A DNA stretch of 64,000 nt from a virus (IMGVR_UViG_3300020477_000013:64001-128000), one strand, 5' to 3'. Shown: positions 4,621 through 26,683, numbered from the stretch's first letter. Notes: a model not told the origin generated them from the letters alone. Numbers and translations: made by a program.

Positions 4621-5025
4621 ATGAATATTTTACGAAGATATATTCGTCAAATTCTGCTAGAGGGCTTAGGGACCGTCAACGTTCCAGACGTGGGTAAAAC
4701 GTCTGTGAAAGATTATAAGTCTTCGATGGATTCATCACTAGCAGCAGGAAAACCAGGTATCAAGCAGGTTACATCGCCAGCCGTCGAAGATAACGGCGAT
4801 AAAGAAAATTTGCTAACCGAGCCAGATGAAATAGAGGATGGTGATAGCCAAGAAGAGGTTAACGCTATTTCTACGGGTGGCGCAGCCATGGCATCTTCCG
4901 GTGCAATTCGAGGTGTTACTACACCCCTAGGGACGGATTCAACTTATCCTTCAAAGAAGAAGAAGAAGAAAAAGAAAGCCTCGAAGAAAGGCGATTCGAA
5001 TTGGTACAAGGCTACCACAAATTAA
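4621..5025 (+). CDS. Leader-tagged hypothetical protein with poly-Lys C-terminus
   Basis: MNILRRYIRQILLEG; KKKKKKKKASKK. Confidence 0.75.
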   Translation: MNILRRYIRQILLEGLGTVNVPDVGKTSVKDYKSSMDSSLAAGKPGIKQVTSPAVEDNGDKENLLTEPDEIEDGDSQEEVNAISTGGAAMASSGAIRGVTTPLGTDSTYPSKKKKKKKKASKKGDSNWYKATTN

Positions 5026-5027
5026 CT

Positions 5028-5055
5028 TGAACATTAATTATTGAAATTTTACATT
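5028..5055 (+). promoter_or_regulatory. Putative early/middle promoter (class E)
   Basis: TGAACA-N16-TACATT upstream of SSB; strong RBS AAGGAG before 5113. Confidence 0.55.
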
Positions 5056-5112
5056 TATGTATGTTGAGTGTGTTTGCTAATTTGCATTTTACTATTATAA
5101 GGAGTTTAGAAA

Positions 5113-12082: not shown

Positions 12083-12685
12083 ATGAAGTGGGTTTCCAAA
12101 ATATCAGGTTTAATAAAAGAGATAGAGTTAAGAAAAAGCCCGGTGATTATTAGGGTTAATAAATTCGATGAAGAGTCTGCAAAGAAATTTTCACAAGAGA
12201 TGGCATTAGCACATAATACTGGGCAAAAAGTTATTCCCGTTGTAATTGATTCTTACGGGGGCCAAGTTTATTCACTTATGTCAATGATAGCTGCTATTAG
12301 AGATGCTGAGATTCCTGTTGCGACTATAGTCGAAGGAAAGGCGATGTCTTGCGGTGCAGTGCTGCTATCTTTTGGGGAAGACGGATTACGGTTTGCTGAT
12401 CCCCATGCAACGGTAATGATACATGATGTCTCTAGCGGGATGTATGGAAAGGTCGAGGAGCTCAAGGCCGATGTTAAAGAGGCTGAAAGGCTAGACGAAA
12501 AGATATACACAATGATGGCACGAAACTGTGGTAAGAAAGATGACTATTTCAAAAAGAAGGTCTTCAATAAAAAACATGCAGATTGGTTTATGGACGCTGA
12601 AGAAGCAAAGCGTCATGGCTTAGTTAACCACTTAAGGATACCAAAGCTTACAATTGCTGTCGATGTCAGTATAGAGATGGAGTAG
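12083..12685 (+). CDS. clpP: ClpP-family protease
   Basis: IDSYGG; GKAMSCG (Ser); VMIHD (His); MDAEEAKRHGLV. Confidence 0.88.
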   Translation: MKWVSKISGLIKEIELRKSPVIIRVNKFDEESAKKFSQEMALAHNTGQKVIPVVIDSYGGQVYSLMSMIAAIRDAEIPVATIVEGKAMSCGAVLLSFGEDGLRFADPHATVMIHDVSSGMYGKVEELKADVKEAERLDEKIYTMMARNCGKKDDYFKKKVFNKKHADWFMDAEEAKRHGLVNHLRIPKLTIAVDVSIEME

Positions 12686-12688
12686 CAT

Positions 12689-13591
12689 ATGTTCGGTATG
12701 ATGAGAAAGATATCATATAACAAAAAGTCATCTAAAAAATTAGGTTGGCGCCCTTTCTGGTTTGGGGAAGATGATTTTAGTTCCACATTAATAAAAAAGA
12801 TTAAAGAATTTCAGGAGAGCCATGATCTTAAACCAGATGGCTTGTGCGGAGATGTTACATTTCGCCGTATATATTCTGAGCAAGAGTCCTCTAAGGACGA
12901 AGATACCGGATCACAAATTATAGTCGAGGGAATTCCTATATCGATTCCGTGGGATAAAGTCGTTTCTATAGAGGATCCGGATAATCTTTCATTACCGAGA
13001 AGTTGCTATCGTCATCGAGACAGGCCTGACCCAACACAAATTGTGACGCATTTTGATGTTTGTCTTAGCGCGGCATCATGTAAGCGAGTGTTACAAAAAA
13101 GGGGCCTGTCTAGCCATTTTGTGATTGATAATGACGGTACGATATACCAGATGGTCGATACCGCATATGAGGCATGGCATGCCCCACCCTCGAATAAGAG
13201 AAGTATCGGTATCGACATAAGTAATGCATATTATGTCAAGTACAATAAAACCTATAAGTCTAGGGGGTTTGGGCTCCGCCCTGTTTTAAAAAATCTACCC
13301 TTGCATGGTACAAAGATTAAGGAGTGCCTGGGGTTTTATGATGTTCAAATAGAGGCGTACAAGGTATTACTTAACACACTTTGTGATTTTTATAAGATCC
13401 CAAAAGAGTGTCCGCTAGATGATAATGGAGATCTTCTGAGGGGCGTGTCGAAGGATGCACGGTCCGGGAAGTTTAAGGGCATTGTTTGCCATTATCATTT
13501 AACGAGAAAAAAAATTGACTGTGTTAATTTAGAGTTAAAGCAAGTGTTAGACGAAATGAAGGTCTCCGGTATGAGCAACGATGAAGCCTGA
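12689..13591 (+). CDS. Endolysin: peptidoglycan-binding domain plus N-acetylmuramoyl-L-alanine amidase (Amidase_2)
   Basis: IKEFQESHDLKPDGLCG; IVTHFD; SSHFVIDNDGTIYQ; AWHA; SIGIDI; IVCHY; KIDC. Confidence 0.88.
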   Translation: MFGMMRKISYNKKSSKKLGWRPFWFGEDDFSSTLIKKIKEFQESHDLKPDGLCGDVTFRRIYSEQESSKDEDTGSQIIVEGIPISIPWDKVVSIEDPDNLSLPRSCYRHRDRPDPTQIVTHFDVCLSAASCKRVLQKRGLSSHFVIDNDGTIYQMVDTAYEAWHAPPSNKRSIGIDISNAYYVKYNKTYKSRGFGLRPVLKNLPLHGTKIKECLGFYDVQIEAYKVLLNTLCDFYKIPKECPLDDNGDLLRGVSKDARSGKFKGIVCHYHLTRKKIDCVNLELKQVLDEMKVSGMSNDEA

Positions 13592-14291
13592 ACTAAGGGT
13601 TGAGTTATATGATGACGGCATAGGGGCTGTTGAGTATGTTTCTCATATGGGTGATGATTTAACGATCGTGAATGCAGCACGTGTGTCTTTTGGCAAGCAC
13701 AAGGAAATACTTGATCAAAAAGATGCTAAGCTGATTAGGTATTTAATCAAACATCGTCATACGTCGACGCTGGAGCATAACATTGTCACTTTTCGCTTTA
13801 CTGTACCTCTTTTCATTCGCAGTCAGCATCATCGTCATCGCACTTGGAGCTACAACGAGATCTCTAGACGGTACACGGACGTTGATATCAAATTCTATGA
13901 AACAAAAGCACTCAGGACTCAACATGCATCAAACCGTCAGGCTTCGAATCCGAATGTTTTGCAAGACCCTATTATAGACCCTGGTGGAATAAGCGGCGGG
14001 AATCATGCCAGCTACCTAATTTCATCTCATCACTCTTCTTCTTTGAGGCTATATAATAAACTACTCGACAATGGCGTCTGTAGAGAACAGGCTCGTGGCA
14101 TTTTGCCCCAAAATATGTACACACAATATTATGGTACTGTGAATTTGAATAACCTGATAAAATTTGTAGAGCTGAGATCGCATGAGGGTGCACAATGGGA
14201 GATTCAGCGTGTCGCTGCTGCATGCATACAAATAGCATCTAGCTTGTGGCCTGAAACAATTTGCGCCTACAAAGAGATTAGGGAAATTTAG
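13581..14291 (+). CDS. thyX: Flavin-dependent thymidylate synthase
   Basis: HTSTLEH; RHRTWSYNEISRRY signature; REQARGILP. Confidence 0.95.
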   Translation: MKPELRVELYDDGIGAVEYVSHMGDDLTIVNAARVSFGKHKEILDQKDAKLIRYLIKHRHTSTLEHNIVTFRFTVPLFIRSQHHRHRTWSYNEISRRYTDVDIKFYETKALRTQHASNRQASNPNVLQDPIIDPGGISGGNHASYLISSHHSSSLRLYNKLLDNGVCREQARGILPQNMYTQYYGTVNLNNLIKFVELRSHEGAQWEIQRVAAACIQIASSLWPETICAYKEIREI

Positions 14292-14302
14292 CCTGTGGAT
14301 TG

Positions 14303-14310
14303 ATAATTAT
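14303..14310 (+). promoter_or_regulatory. Putative late promoter (class L)
   Basis: ATAATTAT 19 nt upstream of the GTG at 14330. Confidence 0.5.
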
Positions 14311-14329
14311 TTCAAGCCCGGGGTGTACG

Positions 14330-17300
14330 GTGAGTTCAGAATTTGCTAGTCTCATAAGAAAATATATTGCAGAAGCCAATGATTATTCATGGGATGTTTC
14401 TAACCGCAAAAATATGTTGCTAGATCAACCTGGGATGGAGCAGGAAGATAAGGATAACACTGAGGAGTACCTAAAGTCAATGGGCTTGATGGAAAATATC
14501 ATCGCTCTTTACTTAAGGGGTATTTTAAGTGAGAAAGAACTACGCGGCCAAAAGAGCAAGCGTACACTCTACCACATTGGCAAACGACCAGCAGAGCCGA
14601 AGCCTGCTGAGCGCTGGGGTGCAAAAGGTGAGGAGGGCTGGTCTAGAGACTGGATAGAGGGCCCTGTTAAGTCTGGAGTTTTTTTAACACCCAATCCAAC
14701 AGATATTGCCTGGAATCACGGCGTCAGCGGCAATGTGTATGCCTATAAGGTTCCACAATGGGTTATTGAAAAATCAGGAGGTGTGAACCGTTTTGATACA
14801 GGCTCAGAGATCCTCATATCACAAGAGATATGGGAAGAGGCTGGGGATGAGATAGAATTCTTAGGCAAGACTATGGGCAAAGATGAGTTATGGGACTCGG
14901 TTGACTCGTCTTATTACAGCTCGAAGCAAAAGAAGGGTGTACGTGGCGCACACAAGCATGATGACGGTGCATCTAGCATCTCAGGGCTTAGATCAACCAA
15001 CCACCCCGAAGCTGCGATCAAGATGATGTCTCAAGAAGAGATCGAGAAAGCCCTAGCAAAATTTGAAAATGAGTACGCACAGGAGGGCCCTGCGGAGGTG
15101 GTCAAGGGCCCGCGAGATAAAAAAGGGCTCGTCATCCCCTACCTTGGCAAGCAACCAAGGGGTAAAGACAAAGAGCTTATTGATCTTCTCAACAAGTACA
15201 TGAAGGAGTCGGTTGTTCGACAGTATATAAAGGATCTGCTTGTAGAGGTCCCACTTGATGACTTTGAGTATGTTTCCAAAGACCACGACGATGTAATGGT
15301 CCGAGAAGAGGTTGCTGATTATTTCAAAGCGATACCACAGAGTGTCAACATCTACGTCGCACATACAGACGATCTTAGCTGGGCACATAGGCTGCCAAAC
15401 GAAATACAGGGCAAGGTATCCGGATTTAAAAGTCGAGGCCAGGTCACCCTTACTGATATTTCAAACATCGGAGAGCTATATCCTCAGATACAGAGGGCTA
15501 TGCACCCAGAAGGAATCAATCTTCTCTACGTCTACCCTAAATCTTTTGAAGTTCCTGCCGGCGGTGATACATTCATTGCTGATGTCAACCCCCACTATTT
15601 GGCTCACGATCTTCATCACATGCTTGAGAATGCCCCCGGCCGTGAAAGAGGAGAAAAAGACAAATTCACTTCTCTTATAAAAGAGTATCTGATGGAGCTG
15701 GTCTGGCTGTCTCACGGTGGCGGGTCGGTGGAAGCTGAGCAAGTGCGAGATACAATGCGGAGAACCGGCCGGCGTCTTGGGGTTGCAAATACAAACCTCT
15801 TGATGAGTGAACTGTTTCCAGGCATCAAACTACCCAGTGGTGACTTCGATCTATTTGGTGATGTCTTTGCTGACTACCTGAAGAACGATGGAAACTTAGT
15901 CCTCGGCGTTCCAGAGCAGCTCGATTATGATGGCACAGTCATTGAATTGAATCCCGGCTCTAAGCACGATCAACGAGCGCAGCAATACGAAAAGAAATTT
16001 AAAGATCTGTTCAATGCAGTATTGGATCCGCTCAAGGGAAAGGTGGCAATGTTCAACATCTTCGAGGTCGAACACCGCGAAGTAGAGCGTGCAAGGAAAC
16101 AAGCCGAAGAGAAAATGCAAGCTGACCATGGCCAACTCATCGACCACATTAAGTCTATGGGCGGAGAGTTTAAGTACTTCGACGAAAGCCACAGAGAAGA
16201 GGGTGTCGAGGAGTTGATATTTGACACCGGTCTCAAGCCTGAAAAGCCGGTCTATGGGATCGAAGAGTTCACCCAACAATTTCCAGAAGAGGCGGCTGGC
16301 ATTGAGGCTTTGGGCTACAAGATAACGAGTGCCTTTGACGGGTTCGGGGGTAGCTCTGTGGAGATTAGGCTGAAGATGGCAGGCATCAAAGAGAGCGTTT
16401 TAAGAAAATATATAAGGCAACTACTCAAAGAAGACCCCATGGGCTTTGTTCACGACCTAGCAGCCTCGGATAAGTTCGGCGATCAGTTTAGGGGTGGCCA
16501 AGTTGGTAAAGATGCTGGTCGAGATATCAAGCGCGCTTTCAACAAAAACGCAGACCACCAATTTCTCAGCACGCTGGATACAGTTCACTGGTTTTACACT
16601 GTTTACGACTTAGAGCCCTTGGTAGGAAAAGGTAAAGATGAACTTTCTGCAACAATGACGCTCCCCGGAGATAGCTTTGACCCAGCCGGTCTTCCATACG
16701 GGCTATGGATTAAGGGCAGAATAACACTGGCTACTAATGAACAAGATAAGATGTACTCCGGATTTTATGGGGACTATGGCGCCGGCTATGAAGGATCAGA
16801 AGAGGAAGTTGCTCATAGAGACCGGTCTTCTGGCAGAAATAAACGGCCATCTGTATCAAAAGATTACAGTCGATACGGCCAGCTCGAACGCGGAAATGAA
16901 TACATGGAGAAGATGGCAAGAGATGGTATTCCCTATATCTTAGATCAGTCAACATGGAATCCAGGTAAGACCAGGTCTAATAATGAGGCGCTGGTAGATA
17001 ATTGGAGGCCTATAGGGATCATTGTTGCAAAGAACGACGTTATAAAAGCTATTCTCAAAGCAGCCAAGAAACTTGCTGGAGAAGGTGGTACCCCACCGAG
17101 CGGTAATATTGCCAAAGACATTAATTATTTTTCGACTGGTGTGACACAAGAGATCATACTAGCAGCCCTACAGTTGGGCGTTCCGATTTATGACACGAGT
17201 CGAACAAAGCTATGGGGCCCTCCCACACACCAGAGTGGAACACAAAAAGAGCTCCGCCAGTACGTAAGAGGGCAGTTAATTTTAGAAGATCGAATCCTCC

Positions 17301-17644
17301 AAGAAAACGTTTTCAAGAAAGCGATTTCATGGGTAAAAGAAAAAGGGCAAGCAGGTATAGAGGCAACCCGCGAATTTCTCACTGACCTAAAAGAAGAGTT
17401 ATCAGAAACTAGGGAGGGAGCAGCACTTCTTACGAAACTAGCTTCTGGTAAAAATTTGTCGCCAGAAGAAACTGGATTTCTAAAACAGCAAGCTAAAGAT
17501 GTAGCGTCAGGTACAGTCCTACTAGGCTTGTTTGCCCTTCCGGGTGGTGGGTTGGCTACTGCAGCCCTTTTAAAAGTAGCAGGAAAAGTAGGTGTTAACC
17601 TTAAACCTACAGCATTTAGAGGGAATGATGAAACTACTTCATGA
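14330..17644 (+). CDS. Multidomain putative polyprotein with four internal leader-like motifs (ART-like, HDxxH, ART-like and LETM1-like segments)
   Basis: Motifs at 14489, 15200, 16367 and 17243 separate unrelated domains. The GTG at 14330 is preferred as start because it gives SLIRKYIAE. Confidence 0.8.
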   Translation: MSSEFASLIRKYIAEANDYSWDVSNRKNMLLDQPGMEQEDKDNTEEYLKSMGLMENIIALYLRGILSEKELRGQKSKRTLYHIGKRPAEPKPAERWGAKGEEGWSRDWIEGPVKSGVFLTPNPTDIAWNHGVSGNVYAYKVPQWVIEKSGGVNRFDTGSEILISQEIWEEAGDEIEFLGKTMGKDELWDSVDSSYYSSKQKKGVRGAHKHDDGASSISGLRSTNHPEAAIKMMSQEEIEKALAKFENEYAQEGPAEVVKGPRDKKGLVIPYLGKQPRGKDKELIDLLNKYMKESVVRQYIKDLLVEVPLDDFEYVSKDHDDVMVREEVADYFKAIPQSVNIYVAHTDDLSWAHRLPNEIQGKVSGFKSRGQVTLTDISNIGELYPQIQRAMHPEGINLLYVYPKSFEVPAGGDTFIADVNPHYLAHDLHHMLENAPGRERGEKDKFTSLIKEYLMELVWLSHGGGSVEAEQVRDTMRRTGRRLGVANTNLLMSELFPGIKLPSGDFDLFGDVFADYLKNDGNLVLGVPEQLDYDGTVIELNPGSKHDQRAQQYEKKFKDLFNAVLDPLKGKVAMFNIFEVEHREVERARKQAEEKMQADHGQLIDHIKSMGGEFKYFDESHREEGVEELIFDTGLKPEKPVYGIEEFTQQFPEEAAGIEALGYKITSAFDGFGGSSVEIRLKMAGIKESVLRKYIRQLLKEDPMGFVHDLAASDKFGDQFRGGQVGKDAGRDIKRAFNKNADHQFLSTLDTVHWFYTVYDLEPLVGKGKDELSATMTLPGDSFDPAGLPYGLWIKGRITLATNEQDKMYSGFYGDYGAGYEGSEEEVAHRDRSSGRNKRPSVSKDYSRYGQLERGNEYMEKMARDGIPYILDQSTWNPGKTRSNNEALVDNWRPIGIIVAKNDVIKAILKAAKKLAGEGGTPPSGNIAKDINYFSTGVTQEIILAALQLGVPIYDTSRTKLWGPPTHQSGTQKELRQYVRGQLILEDRILQENVFKKAISWVKEKGQAGIEATREFLTDLKEELSETREGAALLTKLASGKNLSPEETGFLKQQAKDVASGTVLLGLFALPGGGLATAALLKVAGKVGVNLKPTAFRGNDETTS

Positions 17645-18422
17645 ATACATAAGGTCGACCCTAATGTCTGAGTCTAGGTTTAAGCAGATATTTAAACCCA
17701 AATTCACAGACTTACGGCAATACTTAGCGGGGTCTTCTTTTTTGGATGCTGACCCTGCCGGTGATCTAGATGAAGACACATGGTCGTCTGAGGCCGCCGT
17801 GGTACTTAGGGACGATTTAAATGATTATTTCGATTCAAAATTTGAGTCTGGTTATTTGACAGCAATTGTGAAGGTTGATATGGGATGGACAGACCCCAAA
17901 GCTGGTAAAGACAGTGTTCTTAAGAATGCGACATATTACTTCAAGGGTGGCCTTCATTTCCTAGAGGTTATGTTAGCAGATATTGATGATGGTTCTGTCA
18001 TAAGGGACATGGGACGCCCTGAGCAAAAGGTTTACGAAGTTATTTTACACGAGCTTTTACACATGCAACAGTTTTTAAGGTTTAGCAAGGGAGAACCCAC
18101 TGATAAAAAGTGGGAACACTTCATGAAAGAGTATCGCCGCCGCGGCGGAGCATCAGGTATGGGTTCAGATTATTTCTTTTTTGACGAACCTGGTGCTGCA
18201 TCTGAACTTGAGACATTTTCGTTGCAAATTGCTATTGAGCTTGTGGATGCTATTGGTCAGGAGGCTGCTGTCGCAATATTAGGGCAACAACCTGATTATG
18301 ACATGATAAGAAGAAATTCCGCATCATTTAGAGATATTGAGAAAGCAGGTAATCTCACATCACGCCCCGAATTTAAAGAGCTGGTTAAAAGGGCGAAGCA
18401 ATACGCGAGGCTATCATCATGA
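17625..18422 (+). CDS. Leader-tagged zincin-like metallopeptidase
   Basis: MMKLLHEYIRSTLMSE; ILHELLHMQQ (HExxH) plus downstream ELETFS. Confidence 0.65.
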   Translation: MMKLLHEYIRSTLMSESRFKQIFKPKFTDLRQYLAGSSFLDADPAGDLDEDTWSSEAAVVLRDDLNDYFDSKFESGYLTAIVKVDMGWTDPKAGKDSVLKNATYYFKGGLHFLEVMLADIDDGSVIRDMGRPEQKVYEVILHELLHMQQFLRFSKGEPTDKKWEHFMKEYRRRGGASGMGSDYFFFDEPGAASELETFSLQIAIELVDAIGQEAAVAILGQQPDYDMIRRNSASFRDIEKAGNLTSRPEFKELVKRAKQYARLSS

Positions 18423-19231
18423 AATTACTACGTGAATACATAAGAACACTGTTAACCGAGCGTAATACGATGAAGCGCCCAACCGTGGGAGCAATTCTAG
18501 ACGCGATAGATGTTGTCCAAGCAGCCGAAGATGAAGAAGCAAAGAAGAAGGCCTTAAAAAAGCTTGAGAAGTCCCTGGGGTGGAAAGTAGCTAAGATGCT
18601 AGCAGGACCATTCGGCGATGCAGTTAGCATTGCAAAAGATGCCGCTGGAGTATATAAGACATTAAAGGATACAAAGAAGGCTCCTGAAAAGATGGATAAC
18701 CCTATCCTGGACTTACTTCAAGTCGATTCAGGTTATAAAAACATGTTAGACGACTCAGTCGAGTTCGAATTTGATAAAGATATGGTAAGTTATTTAAACA
18801 GCTTACCTCGAGAAGCACCACTTCCTGATATGACCGTGGAGCTTGAGAAATGGATACAGAAGAAGTTTAATAGGGGAATTTCTGGTGCTGATGTAACAGA
18901 GGTTATTTTTCGTAAGCATATAGGAAACTTAATTCGAGAAGCGATTGAAAATGAAAGTCAGTTCCGTGAGCTTTTGGAGGCTGGTCATTTTGATCAAGCC
19001 ATAGCCTTGGCAGATTCATTAGGCATCAGTGGAAGAGAACTACCTTGGACTGGTGAGCTCTTAGAAGATTACGTGTATGAGAAACTGAAGAACATTCCAA
19101 TAGATGCGTACGATGATGCCAAATTAGTTTGGCACCAGGCCAAAATTGATGCGCTAAATGTTCTAGATATTAGTCTAGAAGAGTACATGGGGCCTAGTCC
19201 ACTAATGATGTATTACAACTCTAGACGATAG
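18419..19231 (+). CDS. Leader-tagged hypothetical protein with a second internal motif
   Basis: MKLLREYIRTLLTE; internal FRKHIGNLIREAIENE. Confidence 0.75.
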   Translation: MKLLREYIRTLLTERNTMKRPTVGAILDAIDVVQAAEDEEAKKKALKKLEKSLGWKVAKMLAGPFGDAVSIAKDAAGVYKTLKDTKKAPEKMDNPILDLLQVDSGYKNMLDDSVEFEFDKDMVSYLNSLPREAPLPDMTVELEKWIQKKFNRGISGADVTEVIFRKHIGNLIREAIENESQFRELLEAGHFDQAIALADSLGISGRELPWTGELLEDYVYEKLKNIPIDAYDDAKLVWHQAKIDALNVLDISLEEYMGPSPLMMYYNSRR

Positions 19232-19242
19232 AGGGAAATGGT

Positions 19243-19485
19243 ATGAAAATAACAAAGCGACAACTTAAAAATCTTATTCGAGAAGCATTCTGGGACAAGA
19301 AGCCTCCTGCTCCCGCGGCCGGATCGGACAAGTTCATGAACCCCCTGTCAGCAGCGTCGGAGTCCATGAGGGAAGTCATATCAGCTCTATGGGGCCCATG
19401 GGACGATCCTCCCCGGCCTGATTTACTAAAGAAAGCTCAAGCTTTGGCTAAAGAAATTGATGAAGCTTCAAAGGACCAGATATGA
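19243..19485 (+). CDS. Leader-tagged small protein
   Basis: MKITKRQLKNLIREA; RBS GAGGG. Confidence 0.8.
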   Translation: MKITKRQLKNLIREAFWDKKPPAPAAGSDKFMNPLSAASESMREVISALWGPWDDPPRPDLLKKAQALAKEIDEASKDQI

Positions 19486-19772
19486 AAATCACCAAACGGC
19501 AACTAAGAAGAATCATCCGAGAAGAAATAGACCACATGACTGGTTTACCAGTGGGTACACCAGTGACCTCGGTTGAGGTTGAGTGGTATGGCCATGAGCA
19601 CACTGAGGGTGAAGGGATTAGCTACGCTGTCCCCACCGAGGTTGTCCTACAGGGTGAGAAGGTGATTCGTAACTATATCGATGGCAAGTTTTACCCTCGA
19701 TACAAGTACCTTATCACGAAGGCAACATGGCGCGAGATCGATGCGCTCATGGGGGATGACTGGAAGCGATGA
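19482..19772 (+). CDS. Leader-tagged small protein
   Basis: MKITKRQLRRIIREE; ATGA overlap. Confidence 0.8.
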   Translation: MKITKRQLRRIIREEIDHMTGLPVGTPVTSVEVEWYGHEHTEGEGISYAVPTEVVLQGEKVIRNYIDGKFYPRYKYLITKATWREIDALMGDDWKR

Positions 19773-20035
19773 AAATCACAAAAAGACAACTAAGAAGAAT
19801 CATCAAAGAAGAATTGCGGCATCTGGCTGAGTACGGATCTCGCTATGGCGATCAAGGCGAGCGAGTCACTGCCGATATGAATGATGAAGAAAAAGAGTGG
19901 TTCCAGAAAGGCGTCGAGGCTGGTAGCCATAGAGGATCCGGTTATGATGATATGCCACATCCCACCACCGCCGGCGGAGCCTGGTATGATGCATGGGTGC
20001 TTGGCTTCGAACATGCCAAGTCAGGAGGCTACTAA
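19769..20035 (+). CDS. Leader-tagged small protein
   Basis: MKITKRQLRRIIKEE; ATGA overlap. Confidence 0.8.
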   Translation: MKITKRQLRRIIKEELRHLAEYGSRYGDQGERVTADMNDEEKEWFQKGVEAGSHRGSGYDDMPHPTTAGGAWYDAWVLGFEHAKSGGY

Positions 20036-20382
20036 TGAAAATCACAAAAAGACAACTTAGATCGCTGATTCAGGAAATGGCAGATGCTCCCCTAGAGCCA
20101 CCTGCGCAGAACCCAAACGTTCAAATTATCTTAGATCAAATGGAAGAGATGTCAATAGCCGATATTCGAGTCATATGGCAAGCCGCTGCCGATACAACCA
20201 AGCGAAAGCGAAATGAATTAAAGGCCGGTTTCAAAAAAGGTGACCGGGTCCAATGGACTCGTAAGAACGGCTCGCAAGGAGTGGGGACTGTTGTTCGCCG
20301 CGGAGGAAAGTACGTCATGGTTCAACCTGACGGTGATAATCGAACATGGAAAAAATGGCCGGATAGTTTGAGTAAGATATAA
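20035..20382 (+). CDS. Leader-tagged small protein with SH3/KOW-like C-terminal domain
   Basis: True start at 20035 (TAATG overlap, RBS AGGAGG); MKITKRQLRSLIQE; FKKGDRVQW...GTVVRRGGKYVMV. Confidence 0.75.
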   Translation: MKITKRQLRSLIQEMADAPLEPPAQNPNVQIILDQMEEMSIADIRVIWQAAADTTKRKRNELKAGFKKGDRVQWTRKNGSQGVGTVVRRGGKYVMVQPDGDNRTWKKWPDSLSKI

Positions 20383-20789
20383 TGAAACTACTCCGCGAGT
20401 ACATAAGGGTTTTACTCGAGCAGCCCGATATCGGATTGCCTCCGACGCTGTACCATGCGACTTATGGTCCTTTAGTTGACTCGATCATGTCATCTGGCTT
20501 AGGTGGATCCAGAGATACAATGTGGGAAGATTCTGTGAGAGGTACTGTTTATCTTGCACTAAGTGATGACGTTGCTTATAGCTATGCTGAAACTTCCGAC
20601 GACGCATGGGATAAGTTTGAGACTGATGAAGGGCTGGAGATTGTAGTATTCGAAGTTGACACTTCTCAACTTGATCCATCTAAATTTAACATAGATCAGA
20701 ATGTCATAGATAACGAGGGAGACACTTTAGGGTATTATGGTGTCGTACCTCCTTCTGCGCTTAGGATGATCAGTAGAGTGTACGCATGA
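20382..20789 (+). CDS. Leader-tagged Tpt1/KptA-like ADP-ribosyltransferase-fold protein
   Basis: MKLLREYIRVLLE; LYHAT...SIMSSGL...VYLA...VVFEVD...VPPSAL. Confidence 0.65.
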   Translation: MKLLREYIRVLLEQPDIGLPPTLYHATYGPLVDSIMSSGLGGSRDTMWEDSVRGTVYLALSDDVAYSYAETSDDAWDKFETDEGLEIVVFEVDTSQLDPSKFNIDQNVIDNEGDTLGYYGVVPPSALRMISRVYA

Positions 20790-21604
20790 AACTACTACGT
20801 GAATACATAAGAAGTCTGCTGATTGAGACTGCGATAGGTCAGTGTTATCCGCATGTCGTTAAGATGGCCAAGGGTTCTTCTCAAGAAGAATTCTCAGACC
20901 TAGCCAGATTCAAAGTAGCTCATGGTAGAGTGACAGACAAGTATTCAGGTGAATCAGTTCTACATGCCTGGGTTGAAAAAGGCGATATGGTTTTCGATTG
21001 GCAGACACATTCCACCAAACCTGATGGTATTCCGAAAGATGTCTACTACGACATGTACGCACCAGAAATCCACAACGAATACACAGCCGAAGAGACCATG
21101 GTCAACTGTTTGAAAAGTGGCCAGGCCGGCCCATGGACTTTGAGAGAGTCTACAGGGATAATAGAAGACGGTTGGCCTGGGGTTACATGGAAAGTCCAGA
21201 ATTATGGGAACGGTATCTCCGTTGTCTTAATGATGAGTGGGCAAAAGATGGGAAGCATCATAGCTCGGGAAGTTTCGCGCTGGAAATACTGTGCCGATGA
21301 CGTAGAGAAGTTAAAGGCACAAGGGTATGATTACGAAGACCCACGCTGGCCATCATTAGGACCTAAACTTTTCGCGGTAGGTAATTCTGCAATCGACCAA
21401 GCATTCCGGGGCCAAGGCTGGGGAAAGAAGATGTATAAAGTCCTGATCGACACCATCCGCCAAGAAGCAGGCCGCCGGGGTGCATTTATCGGCGCAGATG
21501 TATGTACAGGCGGATCAACCTCGAAAGGTGCCTTAGGCGTATGGAGATCATTGGCCAGGGACTATCCATCATCCGGTAACGTAGTCTACGTGGGGCCGAA
21601 ATGA
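20786..21604 (+). CDS. Leader-tagged two-domain protein: papain/transglutaminase-like plus GNAT acetyltransferase
   Basis: MKLLREYIRSLLIE; GQCY...HAWVE...VFD (C-H-D); IDQAFRGQGWGKKMY (GNAT motif A). Confidence 0.65.
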   Translation: MKLLREYIRSLLIETAIGQCYPHVVKMAKGSSQEEFSDLARFKVAHGRVTDKYSGESVLHAWVEKGDMVFDWQTHSTKPDGIPKDVYYDMYAPEIHNEYTAEETMVNCLKSGQAGPWTLRESTGIIEDGWPGVTWKVQNYGNGISVVLMMSGQKMGSIIAREVSRWKYCADDVEKLKAQGYDYEDPRWPSLGPKLFAVGNSAIDQAFRGQGWGKKMYKVLIDTIRQEAGRRGAFIGADVCTGGSTSKGALGVWRSLARDYPSSGNVVYVGPK

Positions 21605-22134
21605 AACTACTCCGCGAGTACATAAGGTCACTACTGAGTGAGAGGATAGCATCCACTTATGGTAAGCAGAGCCAGACGCCTGGCAAGAAGAATGTGTACC
21701 GTGGAATGAAACTTACAATGCCTAGCGCATCCCTGGCATCAGCAATTCGCAAGGGTAAAATTAGTGGAGACGAGCGAGCAAGATTAATCCTCGGACAATT
21801 GCAAAATGAGTCCACAGGTGTTTCATGGTCCGAGACTTTTCATACCGCCGTTAGTTTTGCTGATACATGGAGTGCCTCGAATAGAGGTAAAACGATTCAT
21901 GTAATCCTACAGGCTACTATCGACGACGGGCAGGGCTTTGATCCAATTACTACAGGCCAAGAACCTCGGATGTTCTGGGATGAAAACGAAATAAGGATGG
22001 AGCCTGGAGCAACTATACCAATTACAGCGATATATTTATTCATCAAAGGAAAAGATAAATTCGCACCTCAAAAACTACAGTTTCATATTATTACATTGAA
22101 AGACGAAGAAAATCCACTGATGGTGAAAGCATGA
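21601..22134 (+). CDS. Leader-tagged R-S-E class ADP-ribosyltransferase
   Basis: MKLLREYIRSLLSE; VYRG ... GVSWS...AVSFA ... DENEI. Confidence 0.72.
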   Translation: MKLLREYIRSLLSERIASTYGKQSQTPGKKNVYRGMKLTMPSASLASAIRKGKISGDERARLILGQLQNESTGVSWSETFHTAVSFADTWSASNRGKTIHVILQATIDDGQGFDPITTGQEPRMFWDENEIRMEPGATIPITAIYLFIKGKDKFAPQKLQFHIITLKDEENPLMVKA

Positions 22135-22655
22135 ACCTATTACGTGAGTACATAAGGGAGTTATTAGGTGAAGGTGTAGAATTCAGGGAGCTTGATTCTC
22201 CCCTGACATATTATCGATCTAGCAATGTAAAGAGACTGGCTTTATGCGATACGTCTGTAGATGAACCTGCCAGCAGGAGTGATCTTTACTTTTCAGAATA
22301 CCAAGAAATGGAATACGTCGGCAGATCTGGTCGAAGATTAAAGAAACCCAGGAAAGGACAGTTGATACCCGGCGTTTCTGATGTCTGCGTTATTGGGTTC
22401 TTGGACTATCACCAGCAAGGCACCACCCGTGATGGTAAGCCAATGTGGTATTTAGACTATATAAAAACTCGTGGAGGCCACGGTGGGCAAAAGGTGGCTA
22501 GCCGTCTAGTAGACGAGTTTTTCAATCGATATGTAACCGATCCAGGTGTACACGTACACTTCGGAAAGATGATGCGTAAGGAGGTTGGCCACCTAAAAGA
22601 TAAGATGGCAAAGAAATACCCTGACAACATCGTCATTGGGGCAAGGAATTACTGA
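22131..22655 (+). CDS. Leader-tagged GNAT-like protein
   Basis: MNLLREYIRELLGE; VIGFLDY...WYLDYIKTRGGHGGQKVASRLV. Confidence 0.55.
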   Translation: MNLLREYIRELLGEGVEFRELDSPLTYYRSSNVKRLALCDTSVDEPASRSDLYFSEYQEMEYVGRSGRRLKKPRKGQLIPGVSDVCVIGFLDYHQQGTTRDGKPMWYLDYIKTRGGHGGQKVASRLVDEFFNRYVTDPGVHVHFGKMMRKEVGHLKDKMAKKYPDNIVIGARNY

Positions 22656-23473
22656 TGAACCTACTCCGCGAATACATAAGATCACTTCTGGTTGAAGACG
22701 CAGCTAAGCGCAAACAGTTCGCTCAACACCTTATTGATGCAGGTCACTCTGAGGCAAATTTTGACACGCCTGATGTAGTCGGCCACAGTATTGACAAGGT
22801 GAAGAAGCTCGTTAAGACTGCTCTCGATCAAGGCAAGCTTCTCAAAAAGGCTTTCGCCGAAACTGCAGACAGGGCTTTCCTCGATAGCTTAGTCACAGTT
22901 CACTGGTTCAAAACCAGAAAGACGATGGAGGCATTTTTAGAAGGATCATTTAGTCCCAAGGATGAATTATCAGCCACGGCTTACCTACCGGGTGAAATAA
23001 AAGGCGCCGGCAGGTTTGGTGATTATGGAATCCTTATCAAGGGCCATATCACTCTTTTGGCAAACGACATGGATCAACTCTACACAGGGGCTTCCAGCAC
23101 TTACAATGCAGTGTTTCCTGAAAGAAAGAAGCAGTCTGGCATTAACAAGGGTGTCGAGCAGATATATGAACCAAAAGGTTACGAAGACTATAAGATCGTT
23201 GTGCTTGACGAAGAAGATTGGAACCCCTCTATTGGTGGCTTCCGCAGCTCACAGAATAATGAGGCGCTCGTCGACAACTGGTCTCCGATGGCAATTATCG
23301 TCCCTGACTCTTCAAATCAGCCAGGTTACTGGGATGAAGATTTACAAAAGATGGAACCTGCCGGCCCTGATACAGCGGAAGCCGATATCATTTGGAAACC
23401 GCTACTAGACAAGGCCGGCCTGGATATCCCAGTTATGACAACAAGGGAGCTTGTATCGAGAGGCTGGGTATAA
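22655..23473 (+). CDS. Leader-tagged ART-like protein, paralog of segment 4 of the 14330 protein
   Basis: MNLLREYIRSLLVE; TVHWF...KDELSA...IKGHITL...NNEALVDNW. Confidence 0.7.
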   Translation: MNLLREYIRSLLVEDAAKRKQFAQHLIDAGHSEANFDTPDVVGHSIDKVKKLVKTALDQGKLLKKAFAETADRAFLDSLVTVHWFKTRKTMEAFLEGSFSPKDELSATAYLPGEIKGAGRFGDYGILIKGHITLLANDMDQLYTGASSTYNAVFPERKKQSGINKGVEQIYEPKGYEDYKIVVLDEEDWNPSIGGFRSSQNNEALVDNWSPMAIIVPDSSNQPGYWDEDLQKMEPAGPDTAEADIIWKPLLDKAGLDIPVMTTRELVSRGWV

Positions 23474-23601
23474 AAATAACAAATACAAAGTGTCATGAAG
23501 CATATGCAATGACTATTTATCTAATCAAAACGATATTACATGCATATAATGTTGATAGTGGCTTTGGATATGCTTAGGGCTATGAAAAAACGGGTGGTAA
23601 T

Positions 23602-24234
23602 ATGAGAATAGCAAAAAATCAACTTAGAAGAATCATCAAAGAACAGATGAAGTCTTGGAAAGAACGACAGGCCGAGCTGGACGCATGGGAGAAAAAGCTA
23701 GTTGCTGCACTTCCAAAAGACCCTTCGAAAATGAGTAATGCTGACCACAAAAAAGTTGCACAGCTCTTTATCGATGAATATGGCCTAGATCAAGCAGACG
23801 CTTTTTATGAAGATGACCGAGGTACATTGGCAGACTTAGGGGTTACACCATATCCTGATCTCGAAAACATCCGCATGGCCATCATGATGGCACTGGATAA
23901 AGATCATAAAAAACGAGTTAATGCTTCTCCTCATAAAAAAGAACTTAGGGCCATCGGGGGTGACAGCTACGGTGCAGTCGAGCCTCGTGAGGTAGCGTAC
24001 TTGACATACCAACCTATTCGTAAGGGTGGTAAAGTTGTAGCATTCATGGTCGAAGACAGCGAGACTCCATGGGGTACAATGCCTCTCGGCCATTCAAGCT
24101 TTGTCGTTGATGAACAATGGGCGAAACAGTCCGGGACAACGGTGGACAAGATTATAAAAGTGTTAGAGAAGGGCGGTGCAACTTTGAGAAAGCGCCGTAA
24201 GCCAGTTAAGAGAACAACTCCATACTACGACTAG
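23602..24234 (+). CDS. Leader-tagged hypothetical protein
   Basis: MRIAKNQLRRIIKEQ. Confidence 0.75.
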   Translation: MRIAKNQLRRIIKEQMKSWKERQAELDAWEKKLVAALPKDPSKMSNADHKKVAQLFIDEYGLDQADAFYEDDRGTLADLGVTPYPDLENIRMAIMMALDKDHKKRVNASPHKKELRAIGGDSYGAVEPREVAYLTYQPIRKGGKVVAFMVEDSETPWGTMPLGHSSFVVDEQWAKQSGTTVDKIIKVLEKGGATLRKRRKPVKRTTPYYD

Positions 24235-24242
24235 CAGGCAAA

Positions 24243-24575
24243 ATGAAATTAAATAGAGATGATATATCAGGTGACGTGGTAAAAAATAATGACACGTATA
24301 TCGTGGTTGATAACACGAACCTCACAGGCCTTGTTGTTTCTAAAACCATATTGCACCCAAAGAAAGAGACCACGGGGCATAGCCATGCGGGCCAAGAAGA
24401 GGTGTATCAATTTGTGTACGGAACTGGTAAAATGCAGGTCGGACAAAACAAATTCGATGTCAACTCTGGCGATATCGTGTTAATCCCTGATGGCTTGTTT
24501 CACAAGGTGTGGAATATATCATGTGTAGAAGACCTAACATTTGTATGTGTTTTTGACGGAAAGAGGAGTCATTAG
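24243..24575 (+). CDS. Cupin-domain protein
   Basis: GHSHAGQEEVY...GDIVLIPDGLFHKV. Confidence 0.85.
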   Translation: MKLNRDDISGDVVKNNDTYIVVDNTNLTGLVVSKTILHPKKETTGHSHAGQEEVYQFVYGTGKMQVGQNKFDVNSGDIVLIPDGLFHKVWNISCVEDLTFVCVFDGKRSH

Positions 24576-24580
24576 TAAAA

Positions 24581-24714
24581 ATGCTTAAGCTAATATTGTG
24601 CGGTATAGCTATTATTATTATTCTCTATGCCGTATCAGATGGGGATTAGCTATATGGGTTGTGGCAATTGGTTATTTTGTGGGAAATGTAGTATGTAAAG
24701 CAGGGGAAATATGA
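24581..24714 (+). pseudogene. Small two-TM membrane protein interrupted by an apparent 1-nt frameshift in a G4 tract
   Basis: MLKLILCGIAIIIILYAVSDG stops at 24649. The -1 frame continues GLAIWVVAIGYFVGNVVCKAGEI to a TGA overlapping the next ATG. Confidence 0.4.
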
Positions 24715-25010
24715 GTAATTTTGGAATTAGCATTGATGCTTTTGAGAAAGACGAAGAAATGGAAGGGACTGTTTTTGAGTTATATGAAAAGCTTCCGAAT
24801 CGTGAATTTAAGAGCCATATTCAGTTTATAAGGGCTGATAGTTTAAGGGATGCTGAAGATAAGACTGCCGAGGTTAATCCGGATTATTGGCGAACACAGT
24901 CGATACGGTCAGTCGGTGTCACATATGTGTGGGATACATTCACACAGCTCTACTATTCATATCATATGGCCAAGTCAGCATTAGGTTTGGATAAATTGAC
25001 GGATGAGTAA
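24711..25010 (+). CDS. Hypothetical protein
   Basis: ORF with RBS-like AGGGG. Confidence 0.7.
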   Translation: MSNFGISIDAFEKDEEMEGTVFELYEKLPNREFKSHIQFIRADSLRDAEDKTAEVNPDYWRTQSIRSVGVTYVWDTFTQLYYSYHMAKSALGLDKLTDE

Positions 25011-25016
25011 AGTAAT

Positions 25017-25460
25017 ATGGAACTTCTTCGTGAGTATGTTAGGACATTATTAGAACAACACACCCAATCAGAGGACCCCTCTTCGGCCGAGCCTTTAAAC
25101 GGTGCTGTGACGGTCGCTGGGATCCCTATTAGCGTTGAAATTGCATCTACTCCAAAATTAAGAAAAGCCGGCCTAATGAACCGAGCGCATCTTGAGCGTG
25201 GAATGCTTTTTTGCTTTCCTGATTGCCGCCCTAGATCATTTTGGATGAAAAATACGCATGTGCCACTGTCGATAGCTTATGCAGATGATAACGGCATTAT
25301 AACAAATATAGAAGACATGGATCCGCATAGTCTCACCGGTGTAAAGTCAATAACTCCAGCTACTTATGCTTTGGAGATGGAGCAGGGGTGGTTTGATAAA
25401 AATGGGGTAGTTCCAGGAGACAAGATTGGGGGTCGCAATGTCAGAAAAAGTAAAAGTTAG
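25017..25460 (+). CDS. Leader-tagged DUF192 family protein
   Basis: MELLREYVRTLLEQ; VEIA...GLMNR...GMLF...FWMKNT..PLSIAY...ALEM. Confidence 0.85.
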   Translation: MELLREYVRTLLEQHTQSEDPSSAEPLNGAVTVAGIPISVEIASTPKLRKAGLMNRAHLERGMLFCFPDCRPRSFWMKNTHVPLSIAYADDNGIITNIEDMDPHSLTGVKSITPATYALEMEQGWFDKNGVVPGDKIGGRNVRKSKS

Positions 25461-26211
25461 GGGCTATATGAAGCCGGCCGCTAGTTTTCATACGTTGGTA
25501 GAGTGGGATATTGTTGTAGCACAGTTACTAGAGCTTCAGCATGAGGGAATTGACACTCGAGGTGGAATAGTACAAGATCAAAGGTTGATAGATATTTTAA
25601 ATAATTTCTTCGGATATCAGCTTATCGATGAGGTGGCTAGGTGGGATTTACTAACACAAAAAAATGTGCTTGACTTTATCGAGGACTTTGTCAATCATAG
25701 GTTTTGGAGTTTTGAGAGAGAATATTCACATTATTTTCCTGATATTAACAGGCTTAAATTCGCATATTTCTATTCTAGGGGTGACATGGAACCATATGTG
25801 ATGCTTGATGATGAGTATACTATCCAGCTTTATGGTTCCACATATAATCCTAAGCTGTTATGTCACTATACCACCGAAGAGGGTGCAAAGAGACTGTCTG
25901 ATGCAATATCGAGAGGTATAGAATATGACATATCAAGCTTTACAGTGATGGATCGCCCATTTTTTAGGAAAGAGTCGAATGTGCTGGTAACGTTTATAGG
26001 GAATGTTAGAGCAGGATTCAGGAGTGACATTAAATCGATGGCACTTGATACGGGTCGCCGAGCATGCAACATGTATCGACTTGAGTACCCGGGTAGGGAC
26101 ATTAATAATATATGTTATGAACTTGACACGTGCGATTCTGATGTAAGGACTAGCTTGTGGAATGAGTACATTGCTACGCCTATTGAGATAGTAGGAATTT
26201 CGTCGAGGTAG
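25438..26211 (+). CDS. Hypothetical protein, possibly with an ART-like C-terminal half
   Basis: LCHYTT...ISSFT...WNEYIA pattern; weak. Confidence 0.55.
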   Translation: MSEKVKVRGYMKPAASFHTLVEWDIVVAQLLELQHEGIDTRGGIVQDQRLIDILNNFFGYQLIDEVARWDLLTQKNVLDFIEDFVNHRFWSFEREYSHYFPDINRLKFAYFYSRGDMEPYVMLDDEYTIQLYGSTYNPKLLCHYTTEEGAKRLSDAISRGIEYDISSFTVMDRPFFRKESNVLVTFIGNVRAGFRSDIKSMALDTGRRACNMYRLEYPGRDINNICYELDTCDSDVRTSLWNEYIATPIEIVGISSR

Positions 26212-26248: not shown

Positions 26249-26683
26249 ATGAGATGGATTCCTCCAAAGTCGCCCCACGGATTAATACAAGAAACCCTCT
26301 GGCCTGATGAGTGGAGAATCCTGGTTTCTTGCCTTTTATTAAACATGACTACACGAAGGCAGGTCGACAGGGTAATAGACCAGCTCTTTCATTTGTATCC
26401 AGGCCCTGTTAGTATGTCTATGGCAAAAGATGAAGATCTTCATGCAATTATAAAGCCCCTGGGGCTAGCAAACAAGCGTGTAAAGACCCTTAAGCGGTTT
26501 TCAACAGAGTACCTGGAGAAAGATTGGGCTTCACCTTTAGAGCTATATGGGTGTGGTAAATATGCTAACGATACGTGGAGAATTTTCTGTCAAGGGGAGT
26601 GGCGTGAGACAACACCCGATGACCATGCCCTTACTAACTATCATAACTATCTAAAATTAGTGAGAGAGCAAGAAAATGCCTGA
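26249..26683 (+). CDS. MBD4-like HhH DNA glycosylase (catalytic domain only)
   Basis: WIPPKSPHGLIQETLW..W..L..C..LN..T ... IKPLGL...R ... LYGCGKYANDTWRIFC..EW....PDDHAL..Y closely tracks the human MBD4 glycosylase domain (recalled alignment). Confidence 0.85.
   Translation: MRWIPPKSPHGLIQETLWPDEWRILVSCLLLNMTTRRQVDRVIDQLFHLYPGPVSMSMAKDEDLHAIIKPLGLANKRVKTLKRFSTEYLEKDWASPLELYGCGKYANDTWRIFCQGEWRETTPDDHALTNYHNYLKLVREQENA

Follow-up and report, generated by a model that had tools for sequence, protein, structure and literature searches.

Does this stretch of phage DNA encode a set of different ADP-ribosyltransferases (ARTs), and if so, how might the phage use them? With ARTs, phages reprogram transcription and translation in the host and counteract NAD-based defences. 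To our knowledge, few of these enzymes have been studied besides Alt, ModA, and ModB from T4. The window that we analyzed is 64,000 nucleotides of viral DNA (IMGVR_UViG_3300020477_000013:64001-128000), and a sequence-only reading had proposed that it contains a cluster of five or six ARTs. All of the motifs which that reading named are present where it placed them. In three families, the motifs go beyond chance because their residues vary little or not at all from one homolog to another. The best explanation (probability around 0.6) seems to be an island of tagged cargo proteins, delivered much as T4 Alt is, with at least three unrelated families of NAD-dependent ART-fold proteins. Of the proposed cluster, these three families (four domains) hold up, and two other candidates, segment 2 and 25438, are unproven.

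The island belongs to a T4-like jumbo phage, marine and uncultured. It is a run of cargo genes on the same strand (14300-25460, about 11 kb), inserted between thyX and 25438, which is a gene of the conserved backbone (Table 1; we name most proteins by the start of the gene). The surrounding genes are involved in nucleotide metabolism (RNR, ClpP, and thyX). For the polyprotein at the beginning of the island, we used the start at 14300; gene callers place it at 14330. Among deposited phage genomes, we found no match to the island with megablast and no match to the polyprotein or 25438 with tblastn. We scanned every one of the ten larger island proteins against Pfam and PHROGs and identified no ART family, just weak SprT and GNAT signals.

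Table 1. Features of the cargo island and its borders. Residues are numbered within each protein.
Feature	Position	Strand	Residues or evidence
thyX, left border of the cassette island	13581..14291	+	PHROG thymidylate synthase, E 8e-65
Polyprotein, 1114 aa, of tag-delimited segments, two of them ART candidates	14300..17644	+	
Polyprotein segment 2, LYH...GVFLT...SEIL domain	14522..14944	+	Candidate by motif and language-model leads
Polyprotein segment 4, internal tag VLRKYIRQLLKE and VHW ART-like paralog	16397..17254	+	BLASTP, alignment A3
Tagged non-ART cargo, HExxH zincin or SprT-like metallopeptidase (weak)	17592..18422	+	Pfam SprT-like, E 8.6e-4, below cut-off
20382, tagged protein of 135 aa, putative minimal H-Y-D ART-like domain resembling the Tpt1 NAD lobe	20382..20789	+	H25, Y57, D105
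Tagged non-ART cargo, weak GNAT acetyltransferase signal in C-terminal half	20786..21604	+	Pfam Acetyltransf_1, E 0.015
21601, tagged protein of 177 aa, predicted minimal R-S-ExE ADP-ribosyltransferase domain	21601..22134	+	R34, S75-W76-S77, E128-x-E130
22655, tagged protein of 272 aa, helical hairpin and VHW...ELS...NEALVDNW domain with predicted ART-like fold	22655..23473	+	H83, S106, E203
25438, untagged conserved backbone gene, 257 aa, CHYT...ISSFT...WNEYI motifs	25438..26211	+	ATG start

The predicted fold and the conserved motif of 21601 support its assignment as an R-S-ExE ART, as had been proposed. Across its homologs, R34, G35, W76, E128, and E130 show little or no variation (R34, E128, and E130 are invariant), and S75 is conserved in at least 90%. 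In the AF2 model (pLDDT 81), YRG (residues 33-35) lies in strand 29-39, SWS (75-77) is in strand 75-77 and is followed by helix 80-86, and ENE (128-130) opens strand 130-132, which is the ARTC or R-S-E layout. A structure search with this model returned almost exclusively ARTs and ART toxins, and the best matches were LT-A, pertussis S1, EcPltA, Scabin, and the Rhs toxin TreX. As in the cholera- and pertussis-toxin-like ARTCs, R34 is at the position of the catalytic arginine (R7 of LT-A and R9 of pertussis S1, from the aligned ranges), with the S-x-S strand and the ExE loop after it. Neighbors in AFDB bear arginine-ART names. 21601 is most likely an arginine-specific protein mono-ART. Curated models (ADPrib_exo_Tox, ART, and Alt-like PHROGs) gave no Pfam or PHROG match at E <= 1 or 0.01, and phmmer searches of the PDB with 21601, 20382, and the polyprotein found nothing meaningful.

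The second family includes 22655 and segment 4 of the polyprotein. Both contain the VHW, ELS, and NEALVDNW motifs, which in the polyprotein are at residues ~750-912 (nt ~16550-17040). These domains had been described as paralogs, and BLASTP agrees (36% identity over 235 columns, E 1e-29). In alignment A3, with family members as little as 32% identical, H83, E104, S106, and E203 are invariant, and segment 4 retains every invariant residue. The nearest structural matches to the model of the VHW domain (pLDDT 80) are Tpt1, CteC, DarT, and SopF, with modest scores; in a second-look structure search, the top seven hits were to Tpt1, CteC, and DarT. Over the globular part, the top matches were all ARTs, from several sub-families, and no other fold appeared. 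CteC is covered almost full length (residues 59-271), and the three motif positions are conserved. The motif of CteC is R65, S97, and E220 (PMC10810742), whereas motif 1 of the VHW family is a histidine: H83 falls on R65 by range offset. Unlike CteC, DarT, and Tpt1, the VHW proteins have an additional N-terminal helical hairpin, and when we scanned 35 family members against Pfam, we found no coherent signal and no match to DarT (PF14487) or Tpt1. The models support, with modest scores, that the VHW domains fold like DarT-, CteC-, or Tpt1-type ARTs. Structure prediction and structure search had been put forward as the check on the cluster, and for both 21601 and the VHW family they gave ART-like folds (at modest Z, <= 6.9) with hit lists that are nearly all ART.

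The third family, represented by 20382, had been assigned to the Tpt1/KptA type, and only part of this assignment stands. The protein contains LYHAT at residues 23-27, and in alignment A2, L23, Y24, H25, Y57, D105, and N107 are each conserved in at least 90% of sequences. When we compared the A2 profile to the PDB, Tpt1 (6e3a) ranked first (E 0.0012), with an alignment that begins at the LYHGT motif. This matches the NAD lobe and not the N-terminal RNA-binding lobe: the alignment begins at residue 86 of 182 in the Tpt1 chain, after the 14-aa tag of 20382. Because 20382 is so short and the match begins at the start of the NAD lobe, there is no space for the N lobe, and the two-lobe architecture of Tpt1 is absent. 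The Arg-His portion of the Tpt1 catalytic tetrad belongs to this N-terminal lobe. Against the Tpt1 family in Pfam (PF01885), the protein from the window had no match and its best relative was below the cut-off (E 6e-4). The weak Pfam matches of the family, which include exotoxin A, converge on Exotox-A_cataly (14/35 members), PTS_2-RNA (6/35 members), RES, and ART-PolyVal (PF18760; 1/35 members, weak E of 0.19). ART-PolyVal has an H-Y-D configuration (PMC5512222), and like ART-PolyVal and Tox-ART-HYD2 (Iyer et al. 2017, PMC5512222), 20382 has a histidine in motif 1, a tyrosine in motif 2, and an aspartate in strand 5. Its language-model neighbors include Arr-ms and PARP. Together, the profiles support 20382 as an ART-like protein that resembles the NAD lobe of Tpt1 only and is not a member of the Tpt1 family. 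In all three families, residues at the active-site positions of ARTs (R/H in strand 1, S/Y in strand 2, and E/D in strand 5) are conserved.

The remaining two proteins are candidate ARTs by motif and language-model leads only. In segment 2, LYHIG, GVFLT, and SEIL are in place (polyprotein residues ~90-172, nt ~14565-14815), and R42, F54, Y73, E96, G115, and K116 are invariant in its alignment (A4), but the histidine of the motif is replaced by tyrosine in several homologs. Individual members gave no coherent Pfam or NCBIfam signal, and there was no profile signal in the PDB. Its language-model neighbors are those of 20382; the hhalign score of A4 against A2 (23.6) was equalled by 3/60 column shuffles. 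25438 is indeed an untagged ORF with ART-like motifs. Relatives are encoded at 129 viral loci, and in the alignment of the 80 that we kept (A6), H143, S166, and E243 are invariant. We found no Pfam, NCBIfam, or PDB signal for 25438; the language-model leads were DarT/PARP, Arr, and Tox-ART-HYD1, at 0.88-0.89. The hhalign score of A6 against A3, the VHW alignment, was 19.9, which 4/60 column-shuffled controls equalled. Since both scores are within the shuffled range, we did not count either pair, and hhalign among all five families found the shared tag only. Furthermore, homologs of 25438 are located directly after thyX in related genomes, so it is a backbone gene rather than an effector of the island, and it does not belong to the cluster.

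Are these enzymes directed at nucleic acids instead? The domains with a histidine in motif 1 (20382, the VHW pair, and perhaps segment 2) could modify the ends, phosphates, or bases of RNA or DNA, as Tpt1/KptA and DarT do, and serve as a repair or anti-nuclease toolkit rather than in host takeover. Tpt1 and DarT are the best structural and profile neighbors, and homologs of segment 2 are found within proteins of 1-3 kaa beside topoisomerase IB, LigD 3'-phosphoesterase, HAD_SAK_1 (an RNA-repair HAD), 2H phosphoesterase, and PAP2. At one related locus (L006), an R-S-E domain follows a HAD_SAK_1 domain, and KptA-based RNA repair has been reported in jumbo phages (PMC9503650). On the other hand, 20382 lacks the lobe of Tpt1 that bears part of the catalytic tetrad, the protein ARTs CteC and SopF have scores as good as those of DarT and Tpt1, and a fold by itself does not determine what the substrate is. 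We view a nucleic-acid toolkit as a possible but somewhat doubtful explanation.

What suggests delivery like that of T4 Alt is the leader. An amphipathic leader, with the form MKLLREYIRSLLxE or MKITKRQLRRII.EE, opens nearly every gene of the island and each segment of the polyprotein, which has internal tags at 15212 and 16397. Strict REYIR tags occur 10 times in the window, all on the + strand at 4627-25023, and never in 20 shuffles. The leader ends in (L/I)-x-E (LLxE), where prohead proteases of the T4 gp21 type cut, and this glutamate (E14) is invariant in the VHW alignment although the sequence of the leader varies among phages. Elsewhere, the genome encodes a prohead protease of the T4 gp21 family (Peptidase_S77, E 2.9e-27) and a gp23-type capsid protein (E 1e-65). 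The gene right after the protease, which is in the scaffold position, has a related leader at its start. A leader ending in (L/I)xE along with a gp21-family protease is what we would expect for T4-type capsid-targeted internal proteins. In T4, the capsid targeting sequence is 10 residues long, and gp21 cuts after glutamate and removes the propeptide of Alt (PMC9026906). By analogy, the shared leader is probably similar to a capsid-targeting sequence, and head-packaged ARTs that are injected like Alt are the most likely reading. By means of their leaders, the proteins would enter the scaffolding core of the prohead; the leaders would then be stripped and the polyprotein cut by the gp21-type protease; and the mature enzymes would be ejected along with the phage DNA and would ADP-ribosylate proteins of the host, and perhaps also nucleic acids, as infection starts. 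We infer each of these steps (packaging, cleavage, injection, activity, and targets). The island ARTs may have a role in host takeover or in anti-defence.

The genome also encodes ClpP (12083). We considered and rejected it as the head maturation protease because it belongs to the conserved nucleotide-metabolism backbone and the T4-type protease is located elsewhere in the genome.

Alternatively, the ARTs might never be packaged and might act inside the infected cell, like ModA and ModB of T4, with the leader being a family-specific helix for cytoplasmic complex assembly or regulation, or else a recombination scar. Packaging is indeed our interpretation, T4 does have unpackaged ARTs, and the island is among RNR, ClpP, and thyX, about 45 kb away from the head gene cluster. 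This alternative does not account well for the invariant glutamate at the T4-type (L/I)xE end, for the gp21-family protease, or for the related leader on the gene in the scaffold position. Also, the internal leaders bound polyprotein modules that are separate genes in relatives, where the same modules are split or fused at tags. We consider unpackaged ARTs to be unlikely. That 21601 is the sole real ART, with VHW and 20382 sharing just a common small alpha/beta arrangement or being dead pseudo-enzymes, is less likely still, as the top VHW matches over the globular part come from several ART sub-families and no others, the VHW residues at the three canonical positions do not vary even at 32% identity, and the recurrent matches of 20382 are to four ART families in Pfam and Tpt1 chains in the PDB only.

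If Alt-like delivery is correct, then this phage has much in common with T4: the gp21-family protease, the gp23-type capsid protein, and cargo with leaders that end in (L/I)xE (PMC9026906), as well as an R-S-ExE ART in the cargo and, as for the internal proteins of T4, a cargo set that varies among relatives. Unlike in T4, there are several ART clades in one island, some of the modules are in a polyprotein, and packaging is a prediction. No PHROG or Pfam match pointed to sequence homology with Alt, ModA, or ModB. Alt is also far larger than the ART of 21601 (~165 aa). Like the polyvalent proteins, the cargo includes a zincin-like peptidase and other enzymes, and segment 2 has homologs in giant multi-domain phage proteins; unlike the giant polypeptides with ART-PolyVal, the island modules are mostly separate genes with a common leader.

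A bolder proposal is that a T4-like marine jumbo phage uses one standard capsid-targeting leader, both on genes and at polyprotein cut sites, to package an interchangeable set of four to six ARTs for injection. The set would be drawn from three or more clades that had not been modelled before, and one of these, DarT/CteC-like, would be used offensively on host DNA or proteins. We think that this full version is tentative and somewhat improbable. If true, the phage would have turned the chemistry of bacterial anti-phage toxins against the DNA or proteins of its host.

Head-packaged ARTs and jumbo phages with multiple ARTs have already been described, so the locus adds three to five new ART families and not a new principle. 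The density of ARTs had been presented as notable. Several are indeed found in one locus, but this is less unusual than it was made to seem: in published surveys, more than 40% of jumbo phages have ARTs, and Bacillus phage G has 10 or more (PMC9503650). Like phage G, this large myovirus genome encodes several unrelated ARTs; unlike in phage G, they are clustered in a tagged island, from a marine lineage without a deposited match. In six-frame searches of the genome record, which is estimated to be 73% complete, we found no match to Macro, NAPRTase/NadV, or ADP-ribosylglycohydrolase models, or to PF01885 or PF03496 (for PF03496, none even at E <= 10). Within that same record, tblastn identified no paralogs of the candidate domains besides the VHW pair. 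As an aside, reading motifs alone over-called the cluster: 2 of 6 candidates are unproven, and one of those is a backbone gene.

The three ART-fold families are small (135-272 aa) and conserved, and no curated model covers them. Because of their size, their clear predicted catalytic residues, and dozens of marine homologs, they are ready for expression and assays. If they are packaged, then the island is a natural system for modular loading of cargo via a portable leader, which would be useful for turning T4-like capsids into protein delivery vehicles for laboratory strains. Finally, the structural neighbors of 21601 include proteins from phage G and ParB-fused polyvalent proteins from mycobacteriophages.

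The sequence-only reading proposed several ADP-ribosyltransferase (ART)-fold effectors in this locus. All of the motifs that it named are present at the positions it gave. Direct Pfam and PHROGs scans of its six candidates, which are named here by window start coordinate or by polyprotein segment, matched no ART model. Three families with four domains have intact motifs: 21601, the VHW pair (22655 and polyprotein residues 700-985) and 20382. For these the proposal holds, while the other two candidates, segment 2 of the polyprotein and 25438, showed no profile signal.

The 177-amino-acid protein 21601 has a small family, with 12 database proteins and one fused form (in the related viral locus L006). 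R34-G35, W76, E128 and E130 are invariant in this family, and S75 is almost invariant. In the AF2 model (pLDDT 81, pTM 0.78), YRG lies in strand 1, SWS lies in a short strand and then a helix, and ENE opens a strand, which is the R-S-ExE order. The ranges of the structural alignments place R34 onto R7 of LT-A and R9 of pertussis S1. Where AFDB clusters are named, the names point to arginine ADP-ribosyltransferases, to an enterotoxin, and to Rhs or eCIS toxin tips. Nine BFVD entries matched at E <= 0.001, some of them ParB-fused polyvalent proteins from mycobacteriophages; numerous proteins of Bacillus phage G ranked lower. We put the probability that 21601 is an ART at about 0.9. The ExE rule links the ExE motif to arginine specificity, so judging from its motif, 21601 is probably arginine-specific.

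The two VHW...ELS...NEALVDNW domains are paralogous, as had been proposed (36% identity, E 1e-29). We found 79 database homologues of this family, and none of them contains a Pfam domain. Across homologues as low as 32% identical, the family keeps H83, E104, S106, K129/G130, N137, S161-G162, K165, D185 and E203-A-L-V-D-x-W without exception. The top ten Foldseek hits for the domain model (pLDDT 80) were CteC, OspC3 or CopC throughout, with a best E of 0.01. The R-S-E motif of CteC is R65, S97 and E220 (PMC10810742); with model residue 77 set on CteC 59, H83 coincides with R65. The AFDB neighbours include a DUF3626 protein, a halovibrin, and a head protein of the SPP1 gp7 family, matched in its C-terminal part. 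ARTs stand alone in the hit lists and none of the three canonical positions varies, so even with modest scores, the modeled domain is likely to have the ART fold. The substrate could be of either class: CteC and SopF act on proteins, DarT and Tpt1 on nucleic acids.

20382 (135 amino acids, 66 homologues) had been labeled as Tpt1/KptA. The family conserves LYHA(T/S), VYLA, SYAE and D-x-N-V...G-D-T-x-E-Y-x-G. When we scanned 35 members singly, 14 weakly matched Exotox-A_cataly (best E 0.0045), 6 matched PTS_2-RNA (6e-4), and one each matched RES and ART-PolyVal; all four are ART-superfamily models. When the family profile was compared to PDB, Tpt1 from Clostridium thermocellum ranked first (E 0.0012), with four more Tpt1 sequences and exotoxin A at lower ranks. 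The Arr-ms and PARP clusters are among the language-model neighbours. These profile matches make an ART fold a good bet for 20382. The alignment to Tpt1 begins at LYHGT, the start of the NAD lobe, and 20382 has no space for the N-terminal lobe of Tpt1. We therefore reject membership in Tpt1 and correct the label to NAD-lobe-like only: 20382 resembles an H-Y-D mini-ART. It shares the H-Y-D layout with the ARTs of polyvalent proteins, for which this layout has been reported (PMC5512222).

A HMMER search with the polyprotein over the whole library gave 528 relatives, and about 70 of the best 150 cover segment 2 (residues 75-215). Some of these are within proteins of 1-3 kaa; for instance, the metagenomic homologues P0252, P0269, P0293 and P0299 are 1.2-3.2 kaa. 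The large proteins also bear topoisomerase IB, LigD 3'-phosphoesterase, HAD_SAK_1, 2H phosphoesterase and PAP2 domains, which is a nucleic-acid end-processing neighbourhood. Across 42 aligned sequences, R42, F54, Y73, E96, G115 and K116 are invariant, and the motif His is replaced by Tyr in several. Pfam, NCBIfam and PDB gave no signal for segment 2. hhalign placed its LYH...GVFLT on LYHAT...VYLAL of the 20382 family with a score of 23.6, which 3 of 60 column shuffles also reached, and the language-model neighbours of the two overlap. Segment 2 is a reasonable ART candidate, with odds that are even or slightly in its favor.

25438 (257 amino acids) has 129 relatives among the viral contigs, with H143, S166 and W241-N-E243 invariant. 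Profile searches with 25438 gave no signal, and its hhalign score against the VHW family was weak and inside the shuffled range. The language model provides the only leads (DarT/PARP, Arr and Tox-ART-HYD1 at 0.88-0.89). The sequence-only reading counted 25438 as part of the cluster. In at least 10 related viral contigs, its homologue directly follows thyX; ClpP lies before this pair, and the HhH-GPD and 26676 genes come after it (the loci given for this junction are L018, L020, L022-L026, L039 and L040; window 13581-26211). This makes 25438 part of the backbone, with the tagged island as an insertion between thyX and 25438. The 25438 homologue adjoins a VHW-family gene in a further six relatives, which suggests that this junction is a cassette hot spot. 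The HhH-GPD base-excision glycosylase domain directly 3' of 25438 (144 amino acids, Pfam E 8e-7) keeps this position in relatives.

Coordinates of the island and its surroundings
Feature	Window position	Remarks
DNA polymerase, UvsX-like recombinase, exonuclease, DnaB-type helicase, RNR large subunit, amidase		upstream of island
ClpP-type protease	12083-12685	upstream of island
thyX	13581-14291	upstream of island
Polyprotein	14300-17644 (+)	1114 aa
YSWDVSNRKNM...YLKSMGLME module	14360-14495	polyprotein residues ~21-65
Polyprotein segment 2	14522-14944	ART candidate
Polyprotein segment 4	16397-17254	VHW family
Zincin/SprT-like HExxH protein	17592-18422	weak
Two GNAT-like proteins	20786-21604, 22131-22655	weak
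22655	22655-23473	VHW family
Cupin	24243-24575	island; untagged; E 9e-10
DUF192 protein	25017-25460	island; tagged; E 9e-28
HhH-GPD domain	26249-26683	3' of 25438

All large ORFs of the window are on the + strand. The viral record (201.6 kb, estimated 73% complete, with the window at bases 64001-128000) encodes, outside the window, a prohead protease of the T4 gp21 family (Peptidase_S77, E 2.9e-27) and, elsewhere in the genome, a major capsid protein of the T4 gp23 type (E 1e-65). These identify the virus as a T4-like jumbo myovirus. None of the 50,697 deposited phage genomes that we searched matches it, and its homologues stem from marine metagenomic data, Tara included.

The island leaders terminate in LLxE. 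The strict leader [LIVM]-[LIVMA]-R-x-Y-I-R-x-L-L-x-E has 10 copies genome-wide, all on the + strand and within window 4627-25023, and has 0 copies in 20 shuffles. One strict REYIR-type leader, MNILRRYIRQILLE, belongs to a small ORF (window 4627-5100) that precedes the island by about 10 kb. Genome-wide, 24 ORFs begin with a second leader, MKITKRQLRRII.EE. About 19 of the 24 are in a single small-gene array outside the window (G000:C1, the whole virus record, 146910-160926, or ~147-161 kb); this leader also occurs at window 19243-20040 and 23602. Several small KITKRQL-tagged proteins are within the island as well. In the VHW family, the Glu that ends the leader is invariant, though the leader varies among phages (e.g., MKLIMEQWRKYLxE).

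T4 gp21-family proteases cleave after Glu in such motifs, the N-terminal propeptide of T4 Alt is removed, and a 10-residue leader suffices for packing foreign proteins into T4 heads (PMC9026906). Directly after the gp21-type protease, where T4 has its scaffold gene, is a 140-amino-acid protein that starts with MSKISKSKLKTLIKECLVEILTE, a KITKRQL-type leader; the protease and this protein lie at G000:C1 ~30278-31308 (locus L098 1417-2447). The related loci L002, L003 and L006 have the same modules, joined or separated at the leaders; the arrangement in L006 is a HAD_SAK_1-tag-ART fusion. The tag sequences, the protease, the leader in the scaffold position, and the module splits fit with cargo that would be packaged in the head and freed by the protease.

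Head-packaged ARTs are already an established idea for T4 Alt and polyvalent proteins. In a survey, about 44% of phage ARTs were in contexts that suggest head packaging and over 40% of jumbo phages had ARTs, and phage G has at least 10 (PMC9503650, PMC5512222). Because both head packaging and multi-ART jumbo phages are established, the island represents no new principle. What is new is ART families that lack curated models, arranged neatly under common tags.

The ~40-amino-acid YSWDVSNRKNM module of the polyprotein lies after the leader and before the ART-like domain. It is also found in another phage's HAD_SAK_1-tag-module-ART fusion (L006 9269-10468).
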